Shown: piece after piece, positions 11,446-41,258 of the stretch
Layout: each line of letters opens with the position of its first letter
How positions within the stretch are numbered: the first letter of the stretch is position 1
Virus genome (UHGV): UHGV-0168042
DNA length: 64,000 nucleotides
Source: a virus
Reading direction: 5' to 3' (one strand)
Position numbers and translations under genes: made by a program
The notes under the pieces: model-generated
Told to the model about the DNA's origin: nothing
Database searches by the model: none
Seen by the model: only the letters and a program-made list of their open reading frames with translations

Positions 11446-11465
11446 GTTACGCAGCGGAGGCAGAA

Positions 11466-13382: not shown

Positions 13383-13694
13383 ATTGGCAGCCTCCTTTTG
13401 CTAATTTAAGGAGCTACCGCGTGAGGTTCCAATCTCAATGGCGGTAGCACTGACTGGGTTGGAACTACCGGCGCAAAAGGGAACCGGCCTGCCTTTCGGC
13501 AGCCCAGCCAGCACTACCATTGATCTCTGAGCTAAACGCTACGTATGGCTGTGCGATGGCATGACACAAGAAAAGACGCTTTCGGCGTCTGTGTCGCCTT
13601 TTGCATTATCCGGGGTTCCAATCCCGGCACCCGTTTTTCTAAGGTGCCGTAGAAATATACCCCACGATAATGCCAGGGCGCAACAGTCAGTATT

Positions 13695-15982: not shown

Positions 15983-16460
15983 AGGTTTAACGCCAGCACA
16001 ACTGGCAGAGCGTAACGCTGAGTATGTAACGGAAATTTCCCGACTTGAGAAAGAACGCTCGGCGCTGGCGGCGGAGAATGCTGGGCTGAAACATGCAATG
16101 GCTGTAACTCTTGAGCATGTGTCGGTCACGGATGCAGGGCAGGCCGGAGTTGCTGCAATGATTATCAACGATGCCCTGCACCACAGCGAAACTCCAGCCA
16201 CCGATGCTTTTCTGGCTGAAATTCGTGCGGAGGCTCGCAACGAGGGGATTAACTATACCGCAAGCCGTCTTGCTGCTGCTTTCAACCACGGATTTATCAA
16301 TAAGTCTTTACGTGAAGTTTTCGACGTTACACGCATGATTCTGTCAGCGAAAGAAGAGTTGGCTAATGAACCGCACCCGATTGATGGCCTGTCCGGTGAA
16401 TATGCGGAGAAATCCCTTGAAGAATGGGCGGAACAGATTCGCAAAGGAGCTGACAAGTGA
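15972..16460 (+). CDS. Ead/Ea22-like family protein (paralog 1)
   Basis: 162 aa; shares LAAENAGLK and PATDAFLAEIRAEA segments and C-terminal IRKG-x-x-K/Q end with paralogs at 16876, 17673, 22718, 23224. Confidence 0.5.
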   Translation: MKSEGLTPAQLAERNAEYVTEISRLEKERSALAAENAGLKHAMAVTLEHVSVTDAGQAGVAAMIINDALHHSETPATDAFLAEIRAEARNEGINYTASRLAAAFNHGFINKSLREVFDVTRMILSAKEELANEPHPIDGLSGEYAEKSLEEWAEQIRKGADK

Positions 16461-16867
16461 AGAAGATGATTTTTGTCGCGGCATTGTTGGTGAATATCCA
16501 ACAAGTGCATGCTTCAGCAGCTATTGTAGCCTCTACCGCCGCGACTACGGCTGCTGTAGCTGCTGCGAACTCTGCGAATATCGCAAACCAACAGGCACAG
16601 CGTGCTGCTAATGCATCAGCCAGCGTTCACTCAATCACCATTAAGAGCAGTAAGCAAAATCTGGGATTCATAACGTGCGGCACGCGTTCTAATGAAGCTG
16701 TAGGTTCACTTGGATGTACGGTATATGGGGGTAGTGAGAATAGAGAAATTCCATGGAAAACGTGGCCCGGATACGTTCTTGGCTCGAAGCTCCCGGCCAG
16801 TTATGAAGTAAACGCCGTATCGTTTGATCACTATAACGGCGTGGCAACGGTCTATTTTGCATATTGA
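16457..16867 (+). CDS. Secreted Ala/Thr-rich protein with signal peptide
   Basis: GTG start overlapping upstream stop; MKKMIFVAALLVNIQQVHA signal-like N-terminus. Confidence 0.45.
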   Translation: MKKMIFVAALLVNIQQVHASAAIVASTAATTAAVAAANSANIANQQAQRAANASASVHSITIKSSKQNLGFITCGTRSNEAVGSLGCTVYGGSENREIPWKTWPGYVLGSKLPASYEVNAVSFDHYNGVATVYFAY

Positions 16868-16875
16868 GGCTCCGC

Positions 16876-17676
16876 ATGAAATTCTCCAAATTTTCTGAGT
16901 TGGTGAATCGTATTTTGTTGAATCGTATTTTGTCCAACAACCACAGCCATCGTCGCGATATGGATGTAACGATCGTTGTTCATTCGCCTGGCAGCATTGG
17001 TTCAACACCCTCAGTTGAGGTTCAGTCAATTCACGCTGGTTTTGATTGGGATTCCGGGAAAGTGCTGATTTTCCCAGCACAGCCACTGACCACGCTAACA
17101 CCAGAACAGATTACTGATATTACTGATAGTGTGCGCAAAGGTCAGTCCTGGCACGCATATCAGGAATACAAGAAGCATCAAGAGCAGTTGGAAAAATTAT
17201 CGATTGAACTTGATACCGCAAAACAGCGCATTGCAGAGCTGGAGGGTAATCGCGCGGCGCTGGCTGCGGAGAATGCGAGACTGAAGGCGATATGTGAGGA
17301 TCGCCGCACGTTCATTATGAATGGCGTGCAGCTTGGTTTTATCAAGGTGCCAACAGTGGAAATAGATCCAGCTCTTGAAACAATTCGTATCGCCCTATCA
17401 CCACAAAAAACCACTCCTGCGACCGACACTTTCCTGGATGAAGTGAAGACTGAAGCACGCAAGGAGGGCGCTTACTTTGTGGCGAATAGAATGCTGGCTG
17501 CCTGGGAAGCTGGTTTTATTGATGATACTGCGAAGAACGCCGCGGATATTGCCCGGATGATTCTTACCTCTACTGAGTTTATGGCTAATGCGCGGGAAGG
17601 CGATTTTGACCGCTCATTCTCTGATGGTGTTCTCGAAGATATCGCTGAACAGCTTCGCAAAGGAGGCAGCCAGTGA
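16876..17676 (+). CDS. Ead/Ea22-like family protein (paralog 2)
   Basis: Track ORF from TTG 16864; ATG at 16876 preferred; contains AALAAENARLK and ends QLRKGGSQ. Confidence 0.5.
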   Translation: MKFSKFSELVNRILLNRILSNNHSHRRDMDVTIVVHSPGSIGSTPSVEVQSIHAGFDWDSGKVLIFPAQPLTTLTPEQITDITDSVRKGQSWHAYQEYKKHQEQLEKLSIELDTAKQRIAELEGNRAALAAENARLKAICEDRRTFIMNGVQLGFIKVPTVEIDPALETIRIALSPQKTTPATDTFLDEVKTEARKEGAYFVANRMLAAWEAGFIDDTAKNAADIARMILTSTEFMANAREGDFDRSFSDGVLEDIAEQLRKGGSQ

Positions 17677-21142: not shown

Positions 21143-21158
21143 TGAGGTGGATCAAAAA

Positions 21159-21839
21159 ATGAAAGAACGCGGGATGATTTTTAACGATGAGATGGTCAGG
21201 GCCATCCTCGAAGGAAGGAAGACGCAGACTCGCCGACCTGTAAAAAATGTCAGGGCCGATAACTGCCTAGTTATCCGTAAACCGACAAAGAAACGCAATG
21301 GTGTCTATACCCACGTTATGGATGCACCTGAACATGGTTTATGCCCGTTCGGTAACGTTGGTGATCGCATATGGGTCCGTGAGGCGTGGGCGATATTAGG
21401 CAATGAGGATGGTTGCAGTGTGGACTGGAACGACAACCTTTGTCGTGGCGATGAGAAGAACGCAGCAAGGATTTATCGGGCCAGTTGTGAGCAAAAGCCT
21501 GGTGATTACGGTTTGTGGTCGATACCCGATGATGCCGACTGGAAACCTCACACTGTGAATGAAAAGTTTGATGGCGGGTGGCGTCCATCAATTCACATGC
21601 CGCGCTGGGCTTCGCGTATTTTGCTGGAAATTACCGACGTGCGTGTGGAACGGCTGCGTGATATGAGCGAGGCAGATGCTAAAGCAGAAGGCGCATCTCC
21701 GGCGATGTACAAAATTACGCCGCCGGAAGCTGTTTATCGCGTTGGTTTTGGTGACATCTGGCGCAGTATTTACGGGCAGGATAACTGGCTATCTAACCCG
21801 TGGGTATGGGTAATCGAGTTTAAGCGCGTTCAGGAATAA
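21159..21839 (+). CDS. ASCH-domain-like protein
   Basis: Preferred ATG start with GAGGTGG RBS; N-terminal MVRAILEGRKTQTRR fits the GxKxxExR ASCH signature loosely. Confidence 0.4.
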   Translation: MKERGMIFNDEMVRAILEGRKTQTRRPVKNVRADNCLVIRKPTKKRNGVYTHVMDAPEHGLCPFGNVGDRIWVREAWAILGNEDGCSVDWNDNLCRGDEKNAARIYRASCEQKPGDYGLWSIPDDADWKPHTVNEKFDGGWRPSIHMPRWASRILLEITDVRVERLRDMSEADAKAEGASPAMYKITPPEAVYRVGFGDIWRSIYGQDNWLSNPWVWVIEFKRVQE

Positions 21840-21842
21840 ACC

Positions 21843-22721
21843 GTGAGTATGCATCAAGTTGTCAGCTTTTCAGGTGGACGAACATCGGCTTATCTCGTTC
21901 ATCTGATGGAAGCACAGCGAAAAGCTGGCGCTAGCGTCCATTTCATTTTTATGGATACCGGCTGTGAACATCCTCTGACGTATCGCTTTATTCGTGAGGT
22001 TGTGAAGTTCTGGAATGTACCGCTAACGGTGTTGCAGGTCGATATAAATCCAGAACTTGGGCAGCCAAATGGTTATACGGAATGGGAACCAAAGGATATT
22101 CAGACGCGAATGCCGGTGCTTAAACCGTTTATGGACATGGTTAAAAAGTACGGTACGCCATACATCGGCGGCGCGTTCTGTACTGACAGGCTAAAACTAA
22201 CCCCTTTCACGAAATATTGCGATGACCATTTTGGGCGAGGGAATTACATCACATGGCTGGGTATTCGTGCGGACGAACCCCGTAGGCTGAAACCGAAACC
22301 GGGCGTCCGGTATCTTGCCGAGCTGTCAGATTTTGATAAGTCGGATGTTATCCGGTGGTGGCGAAAACAACCTTTTGATTTGCAAATCCCGGAGCACCTC
22401 GGGAACTGTGTTTTTTGCATCAAAAAGTCAACGCAAAAGCTGGGGCTTGCATGTAAAGACGAACCAGGTCTGATGCGGGTTTTTAATGAACTGGTTACAG
22501 GCAAACACGTCAGGGATGGTCATCGCAGAACAGATAAAGACGTTATGTACCGTGGTCACCTGACGCTTGACGGGATTGCCAGAATGTATGCCGACAGCGA
22601 CTACAGAAATTTGTATCAGGCGATGGTGCAGGCCAAGCGGTTTGATACTGGTTCGTGTTCCGAATCATGTGAAATCTGGGGTGACCAATTGGAGTTGAAA
22701 TTCGAAGAGGTAGTGGCATGA
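21843..22721 (+). CDS. PAPS reductase-like PP-loop ATP pyrophosphatase family protein
   Basis: 292 aa; N-terminal SFSGGRTS PP-loop (SGGxDS-type) motif. Confidence 0.65.
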   Translation: MSMHQVVSFSGGRTSAYLVHLMEAQRKAGASVHFIFMDTGCEHPLTYRFIREVVKFWNVPLTVLQVDINPELGQPNGYTEWEPKDIQTRMPVLKPFMDMVKKYGTPYIGGAFCTDRLKLTPFTKYCDDHFGRGNYITWLGIRADEPRRLKPKPGVRYLAELSDFDKSDVIRWWRKQPFDLQIPEHLGNCVFCIKKSTQKLGLACKDEPGLMRVFNELVTGKHVRDGHRRTDKDVMYRGHLTLDGIARMYADSDYRNLYQAMVQAKRFDTGSCSESCEIWGDQLELKFEEVVA

Positions 22722-23227
22722 CAAACAAAATTGACTATCAAAAGCTTCGTGAAATTGCTGAAAAAACAAAAATTGCTGGTGAAGCGCCTGTAATGCCTTT
22801 CGATCAGCGAATTAATGCGCTTAACGATTTTATGAAGCACTTTTCGCCAGATATCGCGTTGGCATTATTGGATGAAGTTAAACGCCTGGAGGACACAAAT
22901 ATTGATGCTATGTGTCGAATTGCAGAGCTTGAGACTAATCTCGCGGCGCTGGCAGCGGAGAATGAGCTGGCTCGTAAGGCAGTTCAGGCATTCTGCGATG
23001 TTGTTGGCGACAACACCGAGGTTATCGCTGAGGTGGTTGGGCGAGATGGCGTTCTGGTTATTTTGGAGGCCATGAAGGCAACAGGAAATATGCCAGCCAC
23101 CGATGCTTTCCTGGCTGAAGTACGGGCGCAGGGCGTGGAGATGTTTGCGGAGTGTGCATACACGCTTGAACATCATGATCACGCAGTAGCCTTCGCCGCT
23201 GAGCTTCGCAAAGGAGGCAACCAGTGA
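22718..23227 (+). CDS. Ead/Ea22-like family protein (paralog 4)
   Basis: 169 aa; KIDYQKLREIAEK N-terminus, AALAAENELARK, PATDAFLAEVRAQG, ends ELRKGGNQ. Confidence 0.5.
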   Translation: MTNKIDYQKLREIAEKTKIAGEAPVMPFDQRINALNDFMKHFSPDIALALLDEVKRLEDTNIDAMCRIAELETNLAALAAENELARKAVQAFCDVVGDNTEVIAEVVGRDGVLVILEAMKATGNMPATDAFLAEVRAQGVEMFAECAYTLEHHDHAVAFAAELRKGGNQ

Positions 23228-23919
23228 GCAAGATTGACTATCAAGAACTGCGCGAGGCGGCGGAGAAGGCTACGAAAGGTAAGTGGGCTGTTGAATTCGA
23301 CGATGAGATTTACTCCACTGACGGCATAAACCATGAGCAAATAGCTATGGTGTTCAGTGAAAACGAATCTCGTGATGCTGAATTCATCGCCGCAGCCAAT
23401 CCGGCTACCGTCTTGGCGCTGCTGGATGAACGGGAAAGAAACCAGCAATACATCAAACGCCGCGACCAGGAGAACGAGGATATTGCGCTAACGGTAGGGA
23501 AACTGCGTGTTGAGCTGGAAGGCAAAGACAGCAAAATAGCCAATCTTACCGCCGAACGCGATGCTCTTCGTGAAGGTGAGATGGGCGACGCTAGGCATAG
23601 CAACACACGGGCCGCAGCTGATATCTACTTCCAACTGGTCGAGGAGTGCGAAATTCCTGCTGGCGGATCTCTGGTCGAGTACGTTGACGATATGCGCGAG
23701 AAGCTGGAAGCCGCAGAGAAGCGCATTGCAGAGTTAGAAAGTGGTTCTCAGGCACAAAAGTTAGTTGAAGCAATCATTGTTGCGATAGAAAACGAACAGG
23801 AAAGGCTTTTTGATGAAGATTACCTAATGGATTCGAAAGAATGCATTGACGTAATTCGTGAAGAAGTAAAGCGATGGAATGATTCCCGCGCCGCTGGCAT
23901 TCGCATCAAAGGAGAGTGA
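23224..23919 (+). CDS. Ead/Ea22-like family protein (paralog 5)
   Basis: 231 aa; GTG start in conserved junction; MSKIDYQELREAAEKATKGKW. Confidence 0.5.
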   Translation: MSKIDYQELREAAEKATKGKWAVEFDDEIYSTDGINHEQIAMVFSENESRDAEFIAAANPATVLALLDERERNQQYIKRRDQENEDIALTVGKLRVELEGKDSKIANLTAERDALREGEMGDARHSNTRAAADIYFQLVEECEIPAGGSLVEYVDDMREKLEAAEKRIAELESGSQAQKLVEAIIVAIENEQERLFDEDYLMDSKECIDVIREEVKRWNDSRAAGIRIKGE

Positions 23920-23920
23920 T

Positions 23921-24184
23921 ATGGCAACTTTGACAAAAAAAGAACAAGCATGGTTGAGCGAATTACAGGACGTTCTTGATCGCTGCCCATCACCGAAAAA
24001 AATTGGTTTTTACACCATTGGCGATAAAAGCATTTACCTGTATGACCTGCGCCGCATGGATGAAATCATGGAGGCTCTTGATAATCGTTCGTCAATGGAT
24101 TGGTGTGTTGCTGTTCATGATATGAATGCCGGATTTGATGAAAAGATTTTATTCCCCTCATCAGTTGAAAGCACTGCGGGTTAA
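23921..24184 (+). CDS. Hypothetical early protein
   Basis: ATG preceded by AGGAG; 87 aa (MATLTKKEQAWLSEL...). Confidence 0.4.
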   Translation: MATLTKKEQAWLSELQDVLDRCPSPKKIGFYTIGDKSIYLYDLRRMDEIMEALDNRSSMDWCVAVHDMNAGFDEKILFPSSVESTAG

Positions 24185-24194
24185 GGAGTAACAC

Positions 24195-25385
24195 ATGACC
24201 ACTATTACCAAAGAACGTATTGAATTGTTCATTAAAAATCCGCTTGAAAACGGGCTTACCCGTGGTGAACAAATGGAACTGGCACGGATTGCGCTGGCAT
24301 CGCTGGAAGCAGATCCAGTTAAACGAGTTAACTCAGATCAGATGCGCCGAGTCTGCTTAGAAGCTAATCGCCATTTAGATAAATATGACGCGATGGCGAA
24401 AGAGGTAAATAAGTTGCTTGGCCGCATCGCCCCGCCAGCGCCGGTAGTGCCGGAAGAAATCAGTACGACCCACACAATGCTGCCCGCCATGAGTGATCAG
24501 TTGATGGCGTTCGGTTATGTGAAGGGGTGGAATGCCTGCCGCGCGGCTATGCTTCATGCCGGAAACTTTCGGAAAAACGCGAATTCGTCAACCAATAATT
24601 TTCGGGATATTGCGGAAACGTCAACCAACTCTCCGGTAATTCCTGGTGAGGTGTTGTCCGCAATCCTGAAGTTTGCCAGAGTTCGTGCTGATTTCGATGA
24701 TTTTGACGGCGACAGACGAGGTATCGGTGATTGTCTGGATGAGGCTGAGCAAGAGCTTATCGTTACCATTAACAAATATGCCAGCCAGTTGGCAGCAGAA
24801 CCGATAGCGACTAATGACGTTCGAGAGCAGCAGACAGCCGTTCCACCAATACAGGCTGATGTCGCACAAGCAATTGAAAATCTCAAGCAGAAGTTAGTGG
24901 AATGCAATCGCTATAACTACTGCGCAGATGCAGTTAAAGGCGTAGAGGATGCCTGCCGTGCTGTTAGCTATAGCCAAGCCGACAATCAACCAGCATCTGG
25001 CAACCAGGCTGCCGAATCCAATCGCGGTAATGAGTGGACCGGCAATCCTGATATTGATAACGCCATCATCATGCTCGACCGCATAGATACGCTGGAAAAT
25101 TGCGATGATGACCGTATTGAGGCTGTTAAGGCTGTTTTGCGCAGACTGGCTGTCAACTCTCCGGTAACTCCGGATGGCTGGATAAGCTGTAGTGAGCGAA
25201 TGCCGGATACCAAAACAGCCGTTCTTGTTGCCGTGGAGTTTGACAGGAAAGGTGACTGGCGAATGAAATGGGCGACTTACATCCCTGGTCATCCTGACGC
25301 TAATGATGGGTGGATAATTCCTGGTGCGTCGTGGAAACCGTCACACTGGATGCAGCTACCAGAACCGCCACAGGAGGCGAAATGA
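24195..25385 (+). CDS. DUF551-like C-terminal domain protein
   Basis: 396 aa; C-terminal GWISCSERMP...WATYIPGHPDANDGWIIPG...SHWMQLPEPP resembles DUF551. Confidence 0.45.
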   Translation: MTTITKERIELFIKNPLENGLTRGEQMELARIALASLEADPVKRVNSDQMRRVCLEANRHLDKYDAMAKEVNKLLGRIAPPAPVVPEEISTTHTMLPAMSDQLMAFGYVKGWNACRAAMLHAGNFRKNANSSTNNFRDIAETSTNSPVIPGEVLSAILKFARVRADFDDFDGDRRGIGDCLDEAEQELIVTINKYASQLAAEPIATNDVREQQTAVPPIQADVAQAIENLKQKLVECNRYNYCADAVKGVEDACRAVSYSQADNQPASGNQAAESNRGNEWTGNPDIDNAIIMLDRIDTLENCDDDRIEAVKAVLRRLAVNSPVTPDGWISCSERMPDTKTAVLVAVEFDRKGDWRMKWATYIPGHPDANDGWIIPGASWKPSHWMQLPEPPQEAK

Positions 25386-25642
25386 TGGATGTAAAAGAGA
25401 AGGTTTTGCAGGTGATGCGTTCCCGTGCTGCCCTACAAGAGAAAGCTCTCGGCGGTGAATATCCATTCACGATAGCAACCTGGAATCTGCGGTTGGCAAT
25501 GGAGAAGGAATTTCCTGATGAAGAATGGCGTTCGGCAGATTTGCGCAAAATTCTTATGGAGCTGGCTAAAGACGGAACAGTATCCAAAGATACCCATGCC
25601 AGCCGGATTGGTCAGGCGGTATGGAGACTGGAGGTGAGGTAA
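25382..25642 (+). CDS. Hypothetical early protein
   Basis: ATG overlapping upstream TGA (ATGA); 86 aa. Confidence 0.4.
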   Translation: MMDVKEKVLQVMRSRAALQEKALGGEYPFTIATWNLRLAMEKEFPDEEWRSADLRKILMELAKDGTVSKDTHASRIGQAVWRLEVR

Positions 25643-25923
25643 TGGCTAACCTGCAACTTGCCGTTAAAGGTGAATACTTCGATGCCATGATTCGAGGGGA
25701 GAAAACGGAAGAGTATCGCCTGTGTAATGACTACTGGAATAAGCGCCTCGTTAACCGTAAGTATGACCGCCTGATTATCACAAAGGGATATCCGAAGCGC
25801 GAAGACTTCAGTCGCAGAATTGACGTCCCGTATAACGGATATGAAATAAAAACAATCACACATCCGCACTTCGGTGATAAACCGGTAAAGGTGTTCGCGA
25901 TAAAAGTGAAGATTAATAGCTAA
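25642..25923 (+). CDS. ASCH-domain-like small protein
   Basis: Start overlaps upstream TAA; GEYFDAMIRGEKTEEYR contains GxKxxExR signature. Confidence 0.4.
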   Translation: MANLQLAVKGEYFDAMIRGEKTEEYRLCNDYWNKRLVNRKYDRLIITKGYPKREDFSRRIDVPYNGYEIKTITHPHFGDKPVKVFAIKVKINS

Positions 25924-25946
25924 ATTTCAATTAACACGGAGTAATT

Positions 25947-26240
25947 ATGTGGCGCGGTAATAATCATGGCGGAAGCCAGATGATACTTACCGAATATACT
26001 TTCGACCACAAAACCAATAAATCACGTTCAGTATATTTGCTTCGGCACAATAGCCGCGTAAGAAATACCGTGCTGGAGCAAAATCTGACCGTCGAAATGG
26101 ATAATTTAGGAAGCTTCAAGCCAACAATATCGCTTGATGATTTTCCGTGTGGTTTAAGCGAAAGAGAAGCAATGCTGAAATTAGCAGAATGGTTACAAAG
26201 ATTAAGCATTGCTATTGAAGATAACTGGATTCAACCATAA
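25947..26240 (+). CDS. Hypothetical protein
   Basis: 97-aa ORF; start uncertain. Confidence 0.3.
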   Translation: MWRGNNHGGSQMILTEYTFDHKTNKSRSVYLLRHNSRVRNTVLEQNLTVEMDNLGSFKPTISLDDFPCGLSEREAMLKLAEWLQRLSIAIEDNWIQP

Positions 26241-26264
26241 TGAAAAACAGAAAGAAAGATTGCT

Positions 26265-26474
26265 ATGGCAACATTTAGTAAATTCGCAGTAATTATTATT
26301 TTATTAATTCCCCTCACTGTTACAGCAGGGGAACAGCAACATTGCACAAAAGAGAATGAACACCCTTTCATCGTTATTCAATGCGATGACGGAACGGTGA
26401 CTGTGGTTAATGTAAGAAATGACCGTGTAGCTGTTTGCCGTAAAGGCGAACCATGCAAGGAAATAAAACTATGA
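26265..26474 (+). CDS. Small secreted Cys-containing protein
   Basis: 69 aa; MATFSKFAVIIILLIPLTVTA signal-like N-terminus; 5 Cys in mature part. Confidence 0.4.
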   Translation: MATFSKFAVIIILLIPLTVTAGEQQHCTKENEHPFIVIQCDDGTVTVVNVRNDRVAVCRKGEPCKEIKL

Positions 26475-27220
26475 CAAGAATCACTAAAGAGCGTATTTCA
26501 GATATTATTTCCCGTATCGAAATGTATGGTCACGGTGCTGGATACACAGCAGATGAAGTATTGGAGCTTGCCAAAATAGCTTTAGCGCCTTGCAAGGATG
26601 GTAAAGCTATGACACTGATTGACTTGTTAGTGAAGGAATTATCTAAGGGGCGTGGATGGCCTGATGGAAAAGATTTTTGCCATCTATCCATTACGATGCC
26701 AGGTAGTAGTCGCGCTACGGTTCTTTTTGGTACGCGCCATAAAAATTACCAATCATCAAAGAATTATTCCATTGATGGCATTATTTGCGATATCAGTGAC
26801 CTTGATCGCAGTGCGTTTACATCGGTTGTCACTCGTGAACAGTATGAAGCAGCTCGCATAGCGTCTCAGAAAGTCAAGTCTGAAAGTAAGGCTTACAAGT
26901 TAGATTTTGAGCAATGGCTGGAGCAGCAACGCGGGGAAATCGATGTGGACTGCGGTTGTGTGTCTGCGGAAACATTCATGCACTGGTTGCGGGTAGCTTA
27001 TGAGGCTGGGAACCATCCGGTTCTTCCGGATAGTTCCCAACAAGCGCCCAGGAAAAGCGTAAAAACCACTCTGGAAAGAGGCTATCTTGAGGCCGCATTA
27101 AAGATTAAGCCGGGCCATACGCTAGGCGTCATTGATGCCATGTTGGTTCATGAAATGGCTAAGGCTTTATTGCCGCTGGTGGCTGATAAACATGAGGCGG
27201 GCCATGCCAACGAAAGCTGA
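26471..27220 (+). CDS. Hypothetical early protein
   Basis: ATG overlapping upstream TGA; 249 aa. Confidence 0.45.
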   Translation: MTRITKERISDIISRIEMYGHGAGYTADEVLELAKIALAPCKDGKAMTLIDLLVKELSKGRGWPDGKDFCHLSITMPGSSRATVLFGTRHKNYQSSKNYSIDGIICDISDLDRSAFTSVVTREQYEAARIASQKVKSESKAYKLDFEQWLEQQRGEIDVDCGCVSAETFMHWLRVAYEAGNHPVLPDSSQQAPRKSVKTTLERGYLEAALKIKPGHTLGVIDAMLVHEMAKALLPLVADKHEAGHANES

Positions 27221-29838: not shown

Positions 29839-30516
29839 TCACTCCACAACAAACCAGTCACAGGCCAGCAGGTCGCCAACTGAAGGCACCCACGGAACAA
29901 CTACACCTTGTGCATTTTTTAAGGCGAAATAAGCACCATACGGAACGAGGTCGCCGGGGAAATATCCCTTAATGGCTTCCATTCGTGCCGGGTACTGTCC
30001 TTCAGGAACCAGCCAGCAGAATTGGTCTTCGCCGTTCCACCCGCGTCGAGCAACTTTCTTGCCATCCTTCAGCCACATCAGCGCGTCAGAAAAGTCGGCT
30101 GCTTCAAGGTCGATTTCTTCTTGCTGGGTGGTGATGCCACCAGCAGAAATAGTTACGCTCCCGGTAAGATTAATCATCTCGCCGTTGTCATCCGTAATGA
30201 TGACCGTGGTTCCATTTTTGGAGGCGTCGTTAACCAGGCCATAGCGTTCCTCAAATGGTTTCTCCGGGACATAGAACAGATAACCGTTTTCATAAACGAT
30301 CAGATACCCGCCAGTTTTTGGTCGGTGTTTTTGTAAAAAAATTGCGTCAACACAAACTGTTGCCCCTTTAGGTTCAACGAGTTCGATGCTGCCCCAAAGT
30401 GGGGCATCAGTTACTCCGAAAATAACAACATTTTTGATTTTCGATGCACTAACGTTTTTGTGAGCTTTGTATTTGGGAAGGAGCTTAAAAAGCTCTTTCG
30501 TTGCCATGTTATTCAT
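29839..30516 (-). CDS. Hypothetical phage protein
   Basis: 225-aa ORF; C-terminal MWLKDGKKVARRGW motif is shared with the small ORF at 53195-53395. Confidence 0.4.
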   Translation of the reverse strand: MNNMATKELFKLLPKYKAHKNVSASKIKNVVIFGVTDAPLWGSIELVEPKGATVCVDAIFLQKHRPKTGGYLIVYENGYLFYVPEKPFEERYGLVNDASKNGTTVIITDDNGEMINLTGSVTISAGGITTQQEEIDLEAADFSDALMWLKDGKKVARRGWNGEDQFCWLVPEGQYPARMEAIKGYFPGDLVPYGAYFALKNAQGVVVPWVPSVGDLLACDWFVVE

Positions 30517-30530
30517 AGTCTTTTCTCTGC

Positions 30531-31025
30531 TTATAACTTTTCGTACTGAAGCGGTGTACGCTTGATTTCAACGCGGTCTTCCGATGTACTACCAAAGCCA
30601 CCAGCACCTCGCTCTGTTTCATCGAGTTCATCAACTTCTACCAGCGATACCGGTTCAACACGCTCAAAAATGCCTTGCATGACAGCCATTCCAGGCTTGA
30701 GGCAAATGCCTTCCCCGCCGGGATCAGCAATCAGTTTTGCCATGATTTCACCGCGATAATCGGAGTCGATAATTCCTACGCAGTTAGCCAGGCGAGTATG
30801 TTTTTTGCAGCCCAATCCGGATCGTGGATAGAGTTTCAGACACCAGCCGGGCGGGATCTCCATAGCCAGTCCGGTATACACCCACCAGCTTGAGGAAATT
30901 GCCCCATTGCTATCGACGCATGGTTTTATTTCAACAGCCTCAAAATCCATCGCCGCCGATCCGGAGGTGGCATAAGCTGGAAGTTTTGCTGCCGGATGTA
31001 GGCGTTTCACTTTTACGTAAATCAT
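30531..31025 (-). CDS. dut: dUTPase (deoxyuridine triphosphate nucleotidohydrolase)
   Basis: 164 aa; PRSGLG, GIIDSDYRGEI and RGAGGFGSTS dUTPase motifs. Confidence 0.8.
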   Translation of the reverse strand: MIYVKVKRLHPAAKLPAYATSGSAAMDFEAVEIKPCVDSNGAISSSWWVYTGLAMEIPPGWCLKLYPRSGLGCKKHTRLANCVGIIDSDYRGEIMAKLIADPGGEGICLKPGMAVMQGIFERVEPVSLVEVDELDETERGAGGFGSTSEDRVEIKRTPLQYEKL

Positions 31026-31498
31026 TGTTTTTTAGCTCTCTGCGTGAAGGTGTAAACCCGACGTTTGATATGTGGAACGGTAGGAACAGGAAGACAGGAA
31101 CTTTCAATAACTCCTTGCTCCTCCAGCGATCGCACCGCCCGCAAGAACTGCGACGTGTCGCCGCCAAACTGGCGGGCATAGGTGCTGCCGTTATGAAGTA
31201 TTTGAGCTATTACCCGAGCTTTTGTCTGGCTGTCACGATATGCGAATAGCCGCACGGCCTCTTCTGGCGCAATCGCTAACTGATAGCCTTTCCCGGCACG
31301 GTGTCGAATGAATCCATGCGCCAGTAGGTTTTTGAGTTCGTTACGAGTGCGAACAGATCCGTAATCCAGGAAGTGTGGATTGATAACGACTGGCTTAAAC
31401 CATTCCGTAGGTGCTTTAGCTAATAGAGCTAACAGCTTCCCGGACAATTCTGGATAGGAAGACGGGTAACAATTCAGAGATGGGTAATAAGTTTTCAC
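31022..31498 (-). CDS. Hypothetical protein
   Basis: 158-aa ORF overlapping neighbours by 4 nt. Confidence 0.4.
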   Translation of the reverse strand: MKTYYPSLNCYPSSYPELSGKLLALLAKAPTEWFKPVVINPHFLDYGSVRTRNELKNLLAHGFIRHRAGKGYQLAIAPEEAVRLFAYRDSQTKARVIAQILHNGSTYARQFGGDTSQFLRAVRSLEEQGVIESSCLPVPTVPHIKRRVYTFTQRAKKQ

Positions 31499-31839
31499 CG
31501 ACGCCCCCTTGCCGGATATCGACCTGCATTAGTATCCGGTGCAATAAAGCCGGTAGTGGGGCGAGTGAAAGCGAGATTAATCTTCTCGACCATAGTGCGA
31601 TAATTTTCCTGATAGTGGGCCAGGAGTTTTTCGGCGGCAATGATGGTTACTTTCCGGACGTAGCTTTCTGCTTCCTCCAGATTTCGCCAGTTTTTTTCGA
31701 GGGTAAACACAGGGACGGCCTCAAGCCCGGTCATGATGCCGAACACAACGACAGCATGACTGTTCTTAACACCAGCGGCGAAGGTTACGGTGTAACCATC
31801 TACCTTGAAGCGTCTTGATTCCGTGATTTGACTCTGCAA
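31495..31839 (-). CDS. Hypothetical protein (TTG start with AGGAGG RBS)
   Basis: 114 aa; operator-like half-site GTGTTAGAAA lies about 60 bp upstream. Confidence 0.4.
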   Translation of the reverse strand: MQSQITESRRFKVDGYTVTFAAGVKNSHAVVVFGIMTGLEAVPVFTLEKNWRNLEEAESYVRKVTIIAAEKLLAHYQENYRTMVEKINLAFTRPTTGFIAPDTNAGRYPARGRR

Positions 31840-31912
31840 AGCACCCTCCTAAATAGGCGAGGGTACTTTACAGCAAAGGCGTTAATCTAAAAAGATGTGT
31901 TAGAAATTTAAT

Positions 31913-32941
31913 TTACGAATCCATCAGGCGGCTATTAGCCCCCACAGACACGCCGCCACGGCGAAGATACCGCATAAGTGTTTCCGGTTTCTTCCATGTT
32001 CCTTCCTGCATGATCTCCACCATAGACACCTGCTTTTCAGCCATATCAATAGCGGCCCCGACGCGTGCACTATGCCCGGTCCACGTCCGGTATCTTCCTT
32101 TGTTTGGCGTAGCATCTCTTTTATTCAGCAACACCCAGGCGTCGCTGAATATTTTCTCCATTGCAGGTGCAGTAAGGGGCGTTGTCGTGATCCTGGCCTT
32201 ATTGCTACGGTGTATCGGCGGGAACAGCACTGCGTCAGGATGTTCGCGAAGCCCGGAAACATCCAGCCAGTCATTCAGCACAGCGGTAGTGCGACGGGAA
32301 AGCACCTTATCAAGCCCGGCGGCGGTCGTTATTGTCTTCGTGTGTGAAATATGTAGCGTGACAGTGTCACCTGTTTGGTCCAGATCTCCTACACGAATAC
32401 GCGAGATTTCCGACATACGCATCAGCGTATTGTATGCAACAAAGAGAAAAGCCCGGTTGCGCAGGTCCACCAGCCGTTCTGACCTGGACAACAGGACGTC
32501 GAGCAGTTTCAGATCGTCCCACCGCAGCGGTATAGCCTGGCCTGTTCGTTCGCCTTTTTCCGTTGCCGCTTCACGCCGGATGCGCCGCATAGCCAGAGAA
32601 ACACTTTTATCATCCGAAAGTGGCGGAAGGCCACAATGCGAAAGCAGCATGTTAAGCATGGCGTAGTGCTTATCAATGGTGGTCGAAGCCAGATCAGCAT
32701 CATGCAGCTGGAGAAAATACTCGCGGGCCATCTCTGGTGAGATCGGGAACCAGGCGAGCTGGCGAGCGTGACACCATCTCGCCCAGGAGTGAAACACTAA
32801 CCGGAGATCGCGCAAAGTATTCGGCGCGTAAGCCCCCCGGTCATTCATGAACCGCATAAAGTTTTCTGCGGCCTCCTGGTACTCTTTGCCAATGTTGCGC
32901 AGAAAACCACCGGAGCTGCCAGAGATAATTAATTCACTCAT
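31913..32941 (-). CDS. dre: Cre-family tyrosine site-specific recombinase (Dre-like)
   Basis: 342 aa; aligns by eye with P1 Cre: WFPISPEMAREYFLQL vs WFPAEPEDVRDYLLYL, LRNRAFLFVAYNTLMRMSEISRIRVGDL vs IRNLAFLGIAYNTLLRIAEIARIRVKDI, TWTGHSARVGAAIDMA vs AWSGHSARVGAARDMA; palindromic site about 150 bp upstream. Confidence 0.85.
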   Translation of the reverse strand: MSELIISGSSGGFLRNIGKEYQEAAENFMRFMNDRGAYAPNTLRDLRLVFHSWARWCHARQLAWFPISPEMAREYFLQLHDADLASTTIDKHYAMLNMLLSHCGLPPLSDDKSVSLAMRRIRREAATEKGERTGQAIPLRWDDLKLLDVLLSRSERLVDLRNRAFLFVAYNTLMRMSEISRIRVGDLDQTGDTVTLHISHTKTITTAAGLDKVLSRRTTAVLNDWLDVSGLREHPDAVLFPPIHRSNKARITTTPLTAPAMEKIFSDAWVLLNKRDATPNKGRYRTWTGHSARVGAAIDMAEKQVSMVEIMQEGTWKKPETLMRYLRRGGVSVGANSRLMDS

Positions 32942-33093
32942 GAAACTATTTCGCCTCTATATACAGATGACGCTACGCGAAAAATATAAAAATGACAGGG
33001 TAGCTATAAGTTAATTTTCAAAATACAAGCCTTTGATTCGAGGCGCGTATTTTCATTGATGTCAACACTGATCATCTACCCATGATTATAGCC

Positions 33094-33125
33094 TAACTTT
33101 AAATAATGCCAATTATTTAAAGTTA
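33094..33125. other. rox-like recombination target site (32-bp palindrome, 14-bp arms, 4-bp spacer)
   Basis: TAACTTTAAATAAT-GCCA-ATTATTTAAAGTTA; arms perfectly inverted; begins TAACTT like a loxP arm; matches the rox site of Dre recombinase as I recall it. Confidence 0.8.
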
Positions 33126-33306
33126 TAAAATGGCGATTTTTTTTAATCCATCACAGATTGATTCTGACCAGTAACACGTTGCCTTCATGGTCTTTAATTT
33201 GCGAAGTGTGGTTTATACAGTTGGTTTTCTAAAATTGATGACAAAAAATCACAGCTCTATCCTTTACTCACTCTGTTATTCGACATAAATTTGTCATAGT
33301 AATTTT

Positions 33307-33323
33307 ATGTTAGAAAACTAAAT
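33307..33323 (+). promoter_or_regulatory. Operator-like motif ATGTTAGAAAACTAAAT in the leader of the 33336 gene
   Basis: 15-mer identical to sites near 14183 and 43721. Confidence 0.4.
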
Positions 33324-33335
33324 CGAGTAGGAATA

Positions 33336-34373
33336 ATGAGTAAGAAGTCGATCGAGAAAGAGTACAAACGGTTCCTGCAAACCGCTGAACGGTGGAAAGA
33401 GCTGGTGGTCGCAAACTCTGTTTTCCATGATACCAGTTATGCTGGCGAGGAATTCCGCCATGTTGCATTAACGCATGACCAAAACATATTAGAAGAAGCT
33501 GAAAAATGTCTTGCTGAATGGAAAGCCTTCGTTGACATGTGTCGCGATGCCGACGGCAAAGCGTCGAACATTGTTGAGTCTGTATATTCTCCGATCCCAT
33601 TCATCATTGAGGACACCAATCAAAGCACGCATGTTGTTGTGCAAAGCGCTACAACAACACGTACATTTACACGTGAGCAATTGCTCAAAAAATACGACAA
33701 AATCATAAAGAAAAGCCTGAAAAATAGGGTTTTTTCTCAAATCGTAGGTGCTCTTGAAGAAGAACAGCGCTTCTTTGAAGCTGAGCCTGAAGGCGAGATC
33801 TACCGGGCGCGTAAAGAGGCATATACAGATGTTGTGCTGACAACAAACATCGAAGGCAGCAATGCCCTTTCTCGCTTTAGAGTTGGCGCACATGGCGCAT
33901 TGGTTTTCGCAAGACTACCGAAGACAACGATCCCCGTTGTCAATAATGTTGGTGAACGCCGGAGCATTACAATTTATTCTGGCGTCGAATCGGTACCTTG
34001 CAGCCTTCTCGGCGATTTTAACTTATATCGTGTTCGTGACCTGGAAAAACACCAGCCAAGCTACGTTGCGAAGTCGTACATCTTAAGGAACATCGATATT
34101 CGCAACGAAAACCTTAAGCAGAAATCCGCTAAGATGCTGGAGGATGCCGATCCGGCCATTCGCCATATCATTGAACGTAAGATTCGTACATCGCGTGAAG
34201 CAATGGCAAGGCTGGATAAAATGGATCTGGAATTGTTAGACGTAATGATGGCCTCTGGAGACGACCTGACCGGCATCAAACTGAATGAAGCGCGTAAAAA
34301 ATACGGCAAAGCAATCGAAGAACGTTACGGATACACATTCCCCCAAACGCAGCACGCCGCAAAGCTCTGGTAA
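33336..34373 (+). CDS. Hypothetical protein next to recombination site (candidate regulator; function unknown)
   Basis: 345-aa ORF; AGGAA RBS; sits between rox-like site and terminase in the position occupied by immunity genes in P1 (positional inference only). Confidence 0.45.
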   Translation: MSKKSIEKEYKRFLQTAERWKELVVANSVFHDTSYAGEEFRHVALTHDQNILEEAEKCLAEWKAFVDMCRDADGKASNIVESVYSPIPFIIEDTNQSTHVVVQSATTTRTFTREQLLKKYDKIIKKSLKNRVFSQIVGALEEEQRFFEAEPEGEIYRARKEAYTDVVLTTNIEGSNALSRFRVGAHGALVFARLPKTTIPVVNNVGERRSITIYSGVESVPCSLLGDFNLYRVRDLEKHQPSYVAKSYILRNIDIRNENLKQKSAKMLEDADPAIRHIIERKIRTSREAMARLDKMDLELLDVMMASGDDLTGIKLNEARKKYGKAIEERYGYTFPQTQHAAKLW

Positions 34374-34401: not shown

Positions 34402-35910
34402 TTATATATCCAGATCCGGCATTTCGATATCCGCCAGAACCTGATCTCGGAAAGTTGCCATTTCGGCACCAATATCTTCATTAGCAGGCACATAGTCCAC
34501 CAGCATAGTGAAGCAGTAGGTATCCCATCGGTCAGGCGATTTGATGTTTAGCTTTTGCCGCATGTGCTCTTTGCGCATCATCGCCATTTTCCCCTCTTCA
34601 TTCAGTAAAAAGGGGATTTTTGACGCTTGCTCTGCCGTTTTAGGGTCACTGTCTATCCGCATACGCCCTGACTTTATGGCATCACGCGCCATAATATTTG
34701 CGTAGGCACGCTGATTAACAAATCGCTCCCTGTCTTTGTTCGCAAACATGGGTTTTCCCCACCGAATACGTACCGGGTTCGCACCACGACGCACCAACTG
34801 CGCACACGTATCAGAACCAAAACCATCAGCATCAACCGCGATTGTTATATTCGGGTATTTTTCCGGCGTACATTCGTTATATATGAAGTCAGCAAAGGCC
34901 AATGGGTCCATAGTGCCAGGCATCTCCATTACCTTAAAGTTAACAACGCGCCGCTTATCCCTGTGACCTGATACCTTGCAGATGTTGAGGACCGACTTAT
35001 CTCGCCCATTACCAACGTCAGCCGTTGCCACCCATCCCCAGTTTTTCTCCAACAACACCTTGCGGCGAGCAGCGCGATCGCATTCATCACGACCAAGCAA
35101 ATAGCCGTTAATTTCTCGTGGGAACTGACCAAGCACCTTGACCATGTACTCAATAGAATCGCGCCCGCCATATTCCAGAAGCTTCTCCTTGATGAATTGT
35201 GGTGTGACGAACGGTGATTCTTCCGAGTTAAGAACAATTGCTGTCCAGATCCCTTTCGGGTTGCCTGGGGTTTTTGCTCGAGAATGGTGCGAATCGTAGA
35301 AATAACCACTTGGCCTTGTTGGCTGGGATAGCATCAACATCCGGTTATCTTCTTCAGTAAGAGCACCGGTCATTACGCCGATCGCCTTATCAGATATACC
35401 AGATGCTTCATCCAGAATTAGAAGCAAATGTGCCGCGTGTTCCCCCGCCAGCGCTTCTTCGTTGCCGAGTCGATAACCTTTGCAGAGAACTTCCCAAATC
35501 CCCTTACGGGAGCGCTCATAAAACATGGTGTCAGAGAGGACAAAATAGGTCTGCAACCACCCATGACGCTTAACTGCATTCGCCCAATACTGTTTAACGT
35601 ATTTGAATACGCCTGTTTTTACCTGGCCTATCTTGTTAGCAACAATGATGACACGGGCATCGGGGAACAGGATCATAAAAATCAACAGCAACATCGCGGT
35701 AAGGGACGACTTCCCCGTTCCGTGTCCGGACGTGACGGTAGTCCTACTCCCCGTTTCCTGTACGGACTGAATGATCTGCTGCTGCTGGTGGGAGGGGAAC
35801 ATCCCAAAAATATCGACAACAGCCTGGGTAAAGTTGTAGCGGTATTTGATTACCATATCGCGCCAGCGTGGATCTCTGGTGACGCATTTAACCTTGCGCC
35901 CGCCAGCCAT
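34402..35910 (-). CDS. pacB: Terminase large subunit
   Basis: 502 aa; Walker A TSGHGTGKS, Walker B LLLILDEAS; immediately downstream of the small-subunit gene. Confidence 0.8.
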   Translation of the reverse strand: MAGGRKVKCVTRDPRWRDMVIKYRYNFTQAVVDIFGMFPSHQQQQIIQSVQETGSRTTVTSGHGTGKSSLTAMLLLIFMILFPDARVIIVANKIGQVKTGVFKYVKQYWANAVKRHGWLQTYFVLSDTMFYERSRKGIWEVLCKGYRLGNEEALAGEHAAHLLLILDEASGISDKAIGVMTGALTEEDNRMLMLSQPTRPSGYFYDSHHSRAKTPGNPKGIWTAIVLNSEESPFVTPQFIKEKLLEYGGRDSIEYMVKVLGQFPREINGYLLGRDECDRAARRKVLLEKNWGWVATADVGNGRDKSVLNICKVSGHRDKRRVVNFKVMEMPGTMDPLAFADFIYNECTPEKYPNITIAVDADGFGSDTCAQLVRRGANPVRIRWGKPMFANKDRERFVNQRAYANIMARDAIKSGRMRIDSDPKTAEQASKIPFLLNEEGKMAMMRKEHMRQKLNIKSPDRWDTYCFTMLVDYVPANEDIGAEMATFRDQVLADIEMPDLDI

Positions 35911-37274
35911 TAATCATCCTCCGGCGGTTCTATCGCGATATCATCATCTCCGGCGTCATACCCTGCATCAGATGCATCATAATCACCGTAAATTTCAGCC
36001 GTTGCCGAAGGGTCAATATCCAGCTCTTCGTCGTTGGCCTCGAATTCTCCAGCTTTACGCTCGCCATTGCGGTCGTAATCTCCGCAACCCAATTCTTCAA
36101 CAATGGTTGCCACATCCGCCCGGCGCTCTGCCAGCCATAGCGGATGGTTAGCCTGAAGCGTTGCAAACTCCCTTGCCTCTTTGTCCAGCTGTTCATCATC
36201 AACATCATTGACGTCAGAAACAGGTGGTTCGAGAAGAGTGATAGCTTTCGCCGCGCGCGCCGCGAGGATAGCCGGGACGCTGACACCCTGGCGCTCGATG
36301 TATTCAGCAACACCGATATCATCCAGTTCCTCGCGCTCACGCATACGTATAGCGGCGGCGATAACTCTGGCTGCGCGTGCGTCAGCGCCAATGCGATATT
36401 CAATCTCTTTGCCACGCTGTTCGGCCTGTAGGCGTGCTAATTCGAGTTTTTCTCTGGCCTCAGCCTCTTTGAATGCTTGCTGGCGAGCGCTCTGACGAAG
36501 CTTTTCATCCCCCTGTCGCAGCTTTTGTTCGGACTGATATATAGCTGCCAACCTACTGATAAAATCATTCATGTAGTAGGCCGCGTCACTGATTAGACCG
36601 AGAAGGCGCTGCCCAGGGTGCATTCCTTCTGGCTCTTTATCGCCCAAGGTGTCTATTTCCGCCTGTAGACGTTCGGCCTCCTGATCAACAATGCTTTGAT
36701 ACTGAAGTGCGCGCTCTTGCGCCATTTGAATTGCTAACCGCAGGTGTTCTTCTGCGCCGTTCTTCATCATATCGCGAGCCACATTCGTAGTTGGCAATGT
36801 GGCACGCTGCACAGCACCGTCAGGGATCATTGCAGAAGATCCCTCAATTTTTGGGGCACTTTTATCTTCTTCGGGGATCATTTTCGCCATTTTTTCGCGC
36901 AATGATCTCCTGACGGATTCTTTTATCTCATTGTTATTATTTAAATTATTTTCATGATCCGAAGTTTTCTTTCTCGGCATACTTCGGAAAGAACCTGCGC
37001 CCTGCGAATTGTCAATTTCTGTAAATTTTGTTTTTTCTGCACCCTCTTCCTGCTTTTTTGTTGCTCTTCCTGCCCGTTTTTTTTCAGGTGATTTGGTGCT
37101 TTTTTTTGTTGTCTTTACCTGCGACCGCACCTCATTTTTTTTCATATTGAGATGCTTTCTGGCTGTATTGAAGCTAAGGCCATGCTCCTCACAGTATTCC
37201 TTTACAGTGATCCCTTTTTCTTCACGCAACGCTATAAAGCGGGCGCGGTGCTCCTCCCAATTAACCAGACTCAT
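35910..37274 (-). CDS. pacA: Terminase small subunit-like protein with N-terminal HTH and acidic C-terminus
   Basis: 454 aa; N-terminal GITVKEYCEEHGLSFNTARKHL HTH; six GATC sites cluster within about 36680-36960. Confidence 0.55.
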   Translation of the reverse strand: MSLVNWEEHRARFIALREEKGITVKEYCEEHGLSFNTARKHLNMKKNEVRSQVKTTKKSTKSPEKKRAGRATKKQEEGAEKTKFTEIDNSQGAGSFRSMPRKKTSDHENNLNNNNEIKESVRRSLREKMAKMIPEEDKSAPKIEGSSAMIPDGAVQRATLPTTNVARDMMKNGAEEHLRLAIQMAQERALQYQSIVDQEAERLQAEIDTLGDKEPEGMHPGQRLLGLISDAAYYMNDFISRLAAIYQSEQKLRQGDEKLRQSARQQAFKEAEAREKLELARLQAEQRGKEIEYRIGADARAARVIAAAIRMREREELDDIGVAEYIERQGVSVPAILAARAAKAITLLEPPVSDVNDVDDEQLDKEAREFATLQANHPLWLAERRADVATIVEELGCGDYDRNGERKAGEFEANDEELDIDPSATAEIYGDYDASDAGYDAGDDDIAIEPPEDD

Positions 37275-39190: not shown

Positions 39191-39266
39191 TGGTGGCCCC
39201 TACCGGACTTGAACCGGTGACCGTGCGATTATGAGTCGCCCGCTCTAACCACTGAGCTAAAGGGCC
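39191..39266 (-). tRNA. tRNA with CAU anticodon, most similar to tRNA-Ile2 (lysidine-modified, AUA-reading)
   Basis: GGCCCTTTAGCTCAGTGGTTAGAGCGGGCGACTCATAATCGCACGGTCACCGGTTCAAGTCCGGTAGGGGCCACCA; cloverleaf folds; anticodon stem-loop identical to E. coli ileX as recalled. Confidence 0.8.
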
Positions 39267-39420
39267 AGATTACTGTTAATTACGCTTACGCTTTTTGCCA
39301 GAACCGCGTAAGGCTTTTGCCGCTTGCTCTACCCCGTATGCAACCACCAGCAGAAATAAAAATGTCCACCAAGGGTTCTTGTCGGCAAACGTCCAAAATT
39401 CCATCATGTTCTCTATTTGG

Positions 39421-40248
39421 TTATTTCACCGGAACAAACGGAACAGCGGTATTACTGGTCATATACTGCGGTAGCGTTCCGTTCCATTTGTTGATCGCTT
39501 CCAACTCCATAACGCCGGGGTTCTGGCGCAGAGCCTCACCGCGTAAACGAATGGCATCAGCTTCAGCCTGGGCTTTTGTGCGAATGGCATCGGCCTGTCC
39601 GGCAGCTTCTGCGCGCAGCATGTTGGCTTCTGCTTCGCGTTGCTTGACTTCCTGCTCGCGTTGCAGAGTTTTCTGGTTCGCCGTGACTTTGGCATTAATG
39701 CTGTCGATAACGGTTGGCGGGTACTCCGGCTTGCCCACATATGAGAGGCTCATTACCTGAATACCGATGGGCGTCATTTCTTCCTGGATGTCTTTAAGAG
39801 CTGCATCCAGTAGTTCAGACTTGCCACCGTCGATAAATTTGTCGGTGGTCATTTTGCTGGCCAGTCGGTTAAGTGCGTCGGCAATCTTCTGGCGCAGGTC
39901 GGTGTCGGTAATGTCATCCACGCCTTTGCGGTAGGTCTGAAATACAGTTGTGACTTTTGCCGGATCAACCTTGTAAGCTACACCAATGTGGTAACCAATT
40001 GTTGTCCCGTCGCTCATTTGGAAGCTGAACGGATCATCATAGGTCTTCATTTGCTTAAAGGTCGGGAAGATATAAACTTCTGTGTTCCAGCCTGTCCAGT
40101 AGCGACCAACGCCAACTACTTCGCCGACACCTTTATCATCCCCCAGCTTATTTACTTTGATCCCTACATTGCCTGGTTCTACCCGGTCGCATCCGGTCAG
40201 ACATAAAGAACCAAAAATAATCGCTGCACTAATCAACGTTTTTTTCAT
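39421..40248 (-). CDS. SPFH/band-7 domain lipoprotein
   Basis: 275 aa; lipobox LTGC after signal peptide; Ala/Glu/Gln-rich C-terminal region typical of SPFH proteins. Confidence 0.6.
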   Translation of the reverse strand: MKKTLISAAIIFGSLCLTGCDRVEPGNVGIKVNKLGDDKGVGEVVGVGRYWTGWNTEVYIFPTFKQMKTYDDPFSFQMSDGTTIGYHIGVAYKVDPAKVTTVFQTYRKGVDDITDTDLRQKIADALNRLASKMTTDKFIDGGKSELLDAALKDIQEEMTPIGIQVMSLSYVGKPEYPPTVIDSINAKVTANQKTLQREQEVKQREAEANMLRAEAAGQADAIRTKAQAEADAIRLRGEALRQNPGVMELEAINKWNGTLPQYMTSNTAVPFVPVK

Positions 40249-40465
40249 TAATCAATTTCCTGGTTTTTTCACGAAAAAAGACTACTGCAAAAGCCGGGTA
40301 AATGAGCGCGAGAAGGACTCCCAACAATACAAGTATTGTGCTGTCAGATGAGATCATATTTGGCAAAAGCCAAACATACAGAACCAGTGACACAATCAAA
40401 CAGAGGACGACATAAATATATAACCGCACCCATAGCGTTCGACATTTGTTCGGATTGTTCTGCAT
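40229..40465 (-). CDS. Small integral membrane protein (possible SPFH partner)
   Basis: 78 aa; two hydrophobic helices; overlaps start of the SPFH gene. Confidence 0.45.
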   Translation of the reverse strand: MQNNPNKCRTLWVRLYIYVVLCLIVSLVLYVWLLPNMISSDSTILVLLGVLLALIYPAFAVVFFREKTRKLINEKNVD

Positions 40466-40783
40466 CCTCTCACTCCATTATTTAACGAATAAAAAAGCTG
40501 CGGTGCCTGGTGCCTCCAGGTGACGTTAACCAGTTAACAATTAACGCCGGGATGTTTGACTTAACCACTAAGGAGGATTGTTTTAACTGTTCCGCGTGCG
40601 CAATGGGACGGTTTTCAAGACTGCTTGAGCACCATGCTCCCTACTCTCCCGTTATTGTGGCGACCGGTGCTGATCTCCGGCTTGCGGTTATTTCAGACTC
40701 TCACGGGCGTTTAATTGCCCCGCCGAACAGCTCTTTTCCGCAATAGCTGCAATGTCTTTCGCGCATCAGCCTGCGCATTCACC

Positions 40784-40875
40784 ACAATGTTGAGAACACT
40801 GGTTGTCACGCTGCAACGCAACATTTATTCATAGATTGGGATATGACCCCGTTACGCCAGTGTTCTCAACGTTGT
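40784..40875. repeat. Near-perfect 19-bp inverted repeat flanking a 54-bp segment
   Basis: ACAATGTTGAGAACACTGG ... CCAGTGTTCTCAACGTTGT (18/19); intervening segment contains TTGTCA and TAGATT promoter-like hexamers. Confidence 0.4.
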
Positions 40876-41022
40876 AGTGCCGGTTACGGTTCCGGCCAGG
40901 CCTCTTCCTCAACGGGGTGTTCTCCATACGGACTACCGTTTATTGGTCGTTCCTGCGGTTTATGTTGTGAAGCCAGATGCTTATCTTCTGGTTGCTTCAA
41001 AGAGCTGCACTTCATCACAACG

Positions 41023-41096
41023 GTAAGGGTACTTCGTAGGGATTCGAACCCTCTGCCAAGCACGGCGATCTCCGACGTCGCAAAATACCCTTACCT
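41023..41096 (-). other. tRNA-like fragment (T-arm GGTTCGAATCC plus acceptor-like stem); probable tRNA remnant
   Basis: Contains GAGGGTTCGAATCCCTA and terminal GGTAAGG/CCTTACC pairing but cannot be folded into a canonical cloverleaf. Confidence 0.3.
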
Positions 41097-41103
41097 GTTG
41101 TGT

Positions 41104-41179
41104 TGGTGCCGGTTAACGGACTCGAACCGCTGACATCCTGCTTACAAGGCAGGCGCTCTACCAACTGAGCTAAACCGGC
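41104..41179 (-). tRNA. tRNA-Thr (anticodon UGU)
   Basis: GCCGGTTTAGCTCAGTTGGTAGAGCGCCTGCCTTGTAAGCAGGATGTCAGCGGTTCGAGTCCGTTAACCGGCACCA; canonical stems. Confidence 0.8.
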
Positions 41180-41181
41180 AT

Positions 41182-41258
41182 TGGCGATGGTGGGTGGATT
41201 CGAACCACCGACCGACAGCTTAGAAGGCTGCTGCTCTATCCTACTGAGCTACACCATC
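41182..41258 (-). tRNA. tRNA-Arg (anticodon UCU, AGA/AGG-reading)
   Basis: GATGGTGTAGCTCAGTAGGATAGAGCAGCAGCCTTCTAAGCTGTCGGTCGGTGGTTCGAATCCACCCACCATCGCCA; 2 nt from tRNA-Thr. Confidence 0.8.

Follow-up and report, generated by a model that had tools for sequence, protein, structure and literature searches.

Dre/rox and Related Systems

The Cre/lox system of phage P1 circularises infecting DNA and resolves plasmid dimers. Its counterpart in phage D6 is Dre/rox (Sauer and McDermott 2004, cited in PMC4777119). Dre/rox is a standard genome-engineering tool beside Cre/lox. D6 Dre recombines rox both in E. coli and in mammalian cells (PMC4957104, PMC4777119). It shows no cross-reactivity with Cre or Flp (PMC4777119), and cross-reacts partly with pox and some other sites (PMC4957104, PMC4777119); Dre/rox and Panto/pox cross-recombine (PMC4957104). 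The positions at which rox is cleaved are still debated, and it has been argued that the crossover region extends into the arms of the site (PMC4777119). The presence of an inverted repeat upstream of the recombinase gene has already been exploited for the discovery of Cre-type systems (PMC4957104, PMC10250229). Earlier work detected Dre and rox in strains of E. coli (PMC4957104), and the D6-like plasmid prophages constitute a described group (PMC6799933).

The DNA analysed here is a stretch of 64,000 nucleotides from a virus genome, referred to in its entirety as the window. The locus at positions 31913–33125 is almost certainly a Dre/rox module for site-specific recombination, carried by a D6-like phage-plasmid of the P1 type, because the protein, the site, the catalytic residues, and the gene order match the characterised D6 system; no evidence against this identification was found.

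The Recombinase

The dre gene occupies positions 31913–32941 on the minus strand, with its ATG start at 32941, and encodes a Cre-type tyrosine site-specific recombinase of 342 amino acids, the Q35R allele of phage D6 Dre. Alignment with D6 Dre (AAV84949) gave 341 identical residues out of 342 without a gap. The sole change resides in codon 35 (window positions 32837–32839), which specifies Arg in the window and Gln in D6. Comparison with both Dre and Cre bears out the Dre-type enzyme proposed in the initial annotation, the identity to Dre being far from low. Among 24 close relatives of the window Dre, 21 carry Gln 35, such that Arg 35 represents a minority variant; the Cre residue aligned with this position is Arg34. 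A protein identical to the window Dre, Arg 35 included, is on record from 13 contigs, where its neighbours are unchanged. The Q35R allele is presumably of normal activity. A search of genome contigs for Dre returned relatives at 41–47% identity only, and no exact Dre.

Identity to P1 Cre amounts to 42% over 322 aligned positions. The Pfam family Phage_integrase (PF00589) matches the window Dre with an E-value of 5.7e-17, and the top solved structures are all Cre or Cre-derived (Cre-DNA complexes), matched at E ~1e-69 over residues 22–341. In the alignment, Dre residues R175, E178, K202, H290, R293, W316, and Y325 correspond to Cre residues R173, E176, K201, H289, R292, W315, and Y324, a numbering in agreement with that given for the catalytic residues of Dre in PMC4777119. 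The Cre-type catalytic set R-E-K-H-R-W and the tyrosine nucleophile, located in a C-terminal catalytic domain, are complete in the window Dre.

The rox Site

The 32-bp Dre target, rox, is located at positions 33094–33125, upstream of dre and 152 bp from its ATG. It consists of two 14-bp perfect inverted arms and an asymmetric 4-bp centre, GCCA, in the arrangement TAACTTTAAATAAT-GCCA-ATTATTTAAAGTTA; the arms are 100% complementary, with 4 nt between them. This is a simple Cre-type target, with two inverted arms and a short asymmetric centre. Base for base, the site equals the exact wild-type rox TAACTTTAAATAATGCCAATTATTTAAAGTTA as printed in PMC4777119, and the identical 32-mer is annotated as a misc_recomb feature (rox crossover site) in GenBank AY753669. 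The palindrome with 14-bp arms around GCCA had been placed about 150 bp upstream of the recombinase in the initial annotation, and its equality with rox had been proposed; both statements proved exact. The likeness to loxP holds as well, since the arms of rox and of loxP both begin with TAACTT.

Within the 64-kb window, rox is single-copy: no second or pseudo-rox was found with up to three mismatches to the 32-mer. In 100 dinucleotide-preserving shuffles the 32-mer had zero matches, even with three mismatches allowed. With arms of 14 nt, rox is the longest perfect inverted repeat with a short spacer in the whole window; the runner-up has arms of 11 nt, which is also the maximum in 60 dinucleotide shuffles. 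The palindrome thus stands well above chance expectation. Only one other match resembling a rox half-site (at most two mismatches) was detected, at position 1507 with two mismatches, close to what chance would produce. No accessory half-sites with two or fewer mismatches were found near the dre-rox locus.

Genes Flanking dre and rox

On the far side of rox, the c1 gene (33336–34373, plus strand, 345 amino acids) encodes a homologue of the P1/P7-type prophage repressor and is directed away from the site; it is annotated in both AY753669 and MF356679, and its product, an identical protein, carries a precomputed match to PF27008, Phage_P7_repressor_C1. Beyond it, and convergent with it, lie the two genes for the terminase (pacase) subunits, pacB (34402–35910, minus strand) and pacA (35910–37274, minus strand), assigned through the D6 annotation, with a weak Terminase_6N match in the case of pacB. 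Downstream of dre, also on the minus strand, follow orf2 (31495–31839), orf3 (31022–31498), and dut (30531–31025), the latter identified as a dUTPase gene by a Pfam match (7e-14). Consecutive genes from orf2 to dut overlap by 4 bp each, and dre is separated from orf2 by a gap of 73 bp, in which prediction yielded no terminator-like and no promoter-like site. The resulting order, dut-orf3-orf2-dre-rox-c1-pacB-pacA, is that of the annotated immC region of D6.

Just downstream of dut, the minus strand carries a further gene (29839–30516, 225 amino acids) whose product has a C-terminal Thoeris anti-defence Tad2-like domain (PF11195, 2.3e-22). The D6 counterpart of this reading frame, D6_114, comprises only 146 amino acids, and window positions 30220–30454 are without a D6 counterpart.

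The Host Element

A megablast search of positions 31800–33335 against phage records returned Escherichia phage D6 only, at 95.9% identity, and the D6 features in the matching region are dre, the rox crossover site, and orf2. In a local blastn against the D6 genome, the window follows the D6 order on both sides of rox, the zero point of the D6 map, with ~81% of the window covered at 92–98% identity. Several segments of the window are replaced relative to D6, so that the host element presents itself as a mosaic D6 relative. It also contains the P1-type modules of the D6-like/P1-type phage-plasmid group, namely c1, pacAB, lpa, C4 antisense RNA, dar, and head and tail genes, as recognised by the D6 annotation and by matches to C4 RNA, and belongs to this group by their presence. 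Because it is collinear with D6 but several segments are replaced, the element is, by its sequence, distinct from D6 and identified as a D6-like phage-plasmid. The assignment to the D6 lineage, first suggested by the rox sequence, is corroborated by the flanking genes and by the collinearity of the genomes.

A segment of ~6 kb (21145–27071) is missing from D6. Its products are a PAPS-reductase-domain protein, a DUF551 protein, and two proteins of the Ead/Ea22-like kind, besides those of several open reading frames without a family. Further segments without a D6 match are located at 361–1801, 7600–8062, 10880–11895, 16234–17650, and 39409–40592. The last of these falls within a region (39191–41258) with three tRNA genes on the minus strand, Met-CAT, Thr-TGT, and Arg-TCT; at the corresponding place D6 has tRNAs annotated as Ser?, Thr, and Asn, and the segment 39409–40592 is unaligned to D6. 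Two genes for C4 antisense RNA were located at 13437–13647 and 54371–54576; an isrK match comes after one of them and the a1/b1 target element after the other. Two C4 genes imply two immI-like modules for anti-repressor control, in keeping with the D6 annotation, which lists two icd/anti-repressor pairs.

Distribution and Natural Variants

The dre-rox locus was found on 144 plasmids in PLSDB, mostly ~90 kb in size and from Escherichia, Salmonella, and Shigella, with identities of up to 99.0% (E. coli plasmids). Among 5426 complete E. coli genomes, 124 carry the locus, at 127 places, 124 of which are on plasmids. The remaining three places are chromosomal.

Arms and spacers were compared by reading ~30 loci, as against the 144 PLSDB matches. 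At a Dre identity of at least 94%, seen in 23 IMG/VR loci and several plasmids, neither the arms nor the 152-bp distance from site to ATG varies. Natural spacer variants with perfect rox arms were encountered in three forms, given here in the dre-sense orientation, in which the window spacer reads TGGC. TAGT (L076:2317–2348, plasmid pSa76-CIP, NZ_MG874044) adjoins a Dre of 90% identity, TAGC (L087:3706–3737) one of 70% identity, and GGGG (L094:12405–12436) one of 99.1% identity. In pSa76-CIP, a conjugative IncFIB resistance plasmid and not a phage-plasmid, the rox variant is flanked by IS5 and IS26.

At a larger distance, ~35 relatives from Pantoea, Rahnella, Erwinia, and Mixta, together with one from Citrobacter, share 41–51% identity with the window Dre. 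Each has a 32-bp inverted repeat starting with TAAC ~130–220 bp upstream of the recombinase gene, with arms unlike those of rox. A diverged recombinase accompanied by a diverged upstream repeat is the pattern that would be expected of recombinase/target-site pairs.

The dre-c1 Intergenic Region

Between the divergent genes dre and c1, the intergenic region that contains rox extends from 32942 to 33335, with 152 bp separating rox from the dre ATG and 210 bp separating it from the ATG of c1. Its alignment with D6 is ungapped and shows 20 substitutions in 394 columns, none of them in rox or in a TATAAT hexamer adjacent to it. The latter is the −10 element of a sigma70 promoter-like match, TTGGCA-16 nt-TATAAT (33085–33112, minus strand), which points toward dre and agrees with the consensus in 11 of 12 positions; it is a consensus match only. 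The rox spacer, extended by one base to either side, makes up the −35 hexamer, and the −10 hexamer is situated 4 nt outside the left arm. In the dre-rox region, the promoter scan found two promoter-like sites as against 4.0 expected from shuffles. All D6-like loci whose spacer is TGGC retain the match at 11/12. Among the spacer variants it reaches 10/12 with TAGC (locus L087) and 8–9/12 with TAGT and GGGG, and the distant relatives of the Pantoea/Rahnella type are without a promoter-like match across the spacer. A literature search found no published account of a promoter embedded in rox.

A tentative idea follows the position of this match: rox may double as promoter and operator of dre, such that rox-bound Dre would shut off its own synthesis. 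The natural spacer variants (TAGT, TAGC, GGGG), with their identical arms, would then retune the promoter and at the same time create recombination-incompatible groups among co-resident phage-plasmids. Taken as a whole, this proposal is rather doubtful.

Another feature of the region is the 11-mer ATTGATG(T/A)CAA, which occurs as an exact match on both sides of rox, at 33055–33065 and 33234–33244. The second copy is also part of a 17-nt arm of an imperfect inverted repeat (33135–33151 with 33234–33250). With at most one mismatch, ATTGATGWCAA has 10 sites in the window as against 3.6 expected, eight of them elsewhere and with one mismatch. The 11-mer was considered as a dispersed operator for C1, a candidate that was dropped, as the flanks of the sites share no extended motif.

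Recombination Site, Control Element, or Integrase Target

The promoter-like match raises the question of whether the palindrome of this element might serve mainly in transcriptional control, as a promoter/operator of dre or as a hairpin, rather than in recombination. An 11/12 match that reads into dre and takes its −35 hexamer from the rox spacer, together with the conservation of this match in the D6-like loci, is in line with such a role, which would in any case not be exclusive of recombination. The identical 32-mer, however, is an experimentally used substrate of Dre (PMC4777119, PMC4957104), and the promoter is known as a consensus match in a region where such sites are fewer than in shuffled DNA. 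The promoter match decays to 8–9/12 in spacer variants while the arms stay perfect; therefore selection on the arms, and hence recombinase binding, is indicated. That transcriptional control should be the main function of the site is accordingly very improbable.

Still more remote is the reading of the recombinase as a phage integrase, by which the element would enter a chromosomal attachment site, and not as a Cre-like resolvase/cyclase. The Pfam Phage_integrase domain and the three chromosomal places among the 127 in complete E. coli genomes would fit an integrase. Against it, the target is a simple 32-bp inverted repeat carried by the element itself, without arm-type sites; the protein has the two-domain architecture of Cre, with which residues 22–341 align; and plasmids of ~90 kb account for 124 of the 127 places. 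An integrase function can be set aside with near certainty, and the preferred assignment is that of a Dre recombinase acting on its own rox site.

Mechanism and Natural Role

The steps by which Dre would recombine rox are those of the Cre-loxP paradigm as described in the cited papers. Each 14-bp arm of rox would be bound by one Dre monomer, and two rox sites with four monomers would assemble into a synaptic tetramer. Cleavage by Tyr325 and strand exchange would then pass through a Holliday junction formed in the central region, and the direction of the site would be set by its asymmetric centre, GCCA. By analogy with P1, Dre/rox would circularise terminally redundant phage DNA after infection, and it would resolve dimers of the plasmid prophage, so that the low-copy plasmid segregates. 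Circularisation and dimer resolution are the likely natural roles of the module in this element. A P1-type pac site was looked for within pacA in the form of clustered TGATCA/G hexamers; no cluster was present, and the total count was at chance level. Because pacA has no such P1-type cluster, the circularisation role receives no further support from this side.

Comparison with Known Systems

Relative to P1, the locus combines a shared layout with distinct neighbours. The P1 order is pacA-pacB-c1-(coi, imc)-lox-cra-cre-c8-ref-mat, with c1 and cre diverging from lox. The window is arranged like P1, in mirror image: the site is placed between divergent genes for C1 and the recombinase, and pacA and pacB converge on c1. 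In P1, cra is interposed between lox and cre, three cre promoters have been mapped on the downstream side of lox, and cre is followed by c8-ref-mat; in the window the recombinase gene is followed by orf2, orf3, dut, and then the Tad2-like gene. According to the initial annotation, the recombinase gene, in contrast to P1, closes a minus-strand operon of which the dUTPase gene is a member. The downstream genes do differ from those of P1, but dre is not the last gene of this series: it is the first, site-proximal minus-strand gene, as in the P1 arrangement. The sites themselves also differ in their layout, which is 13-8-13 in loxP as compared with 14-bp arms and a 4-bp asymmetric centre in rox (PMC4777119).

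Panto/pox and the other Cre-type recombinases of Pantoea, Rahnella, and Erwinia (PMC4957104, PMC10250229) are 41–47% identical to the window Dre and have a 32-bp repeat starting with TAAC 130–220 bp upstream; their arms differ from those of rox, e.g. TAACTTCATATAAT and TAACTTTATATAAT.

Dre/rox on a D6-like phage-plasmid is an already known system, and nothing new is added here about its workings. The natural variation described above, i.e. the Q35R allele, the alternative rox spacers, and the promoter-like match across the spacer, is possibly useful to tool builders. The closest relative of the module is Dre/rox of D6 itself (AY753669, MF356679), which has in common with the window the 32-bp rox, the 152-bp spacing, and the genes dut, orf3, orf2, c1, pacB, and pacA. 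The window is set apart from D6 by the Q35R exchange, by surrounding DNA that is 95.9% identical, and by its mosaic segments.
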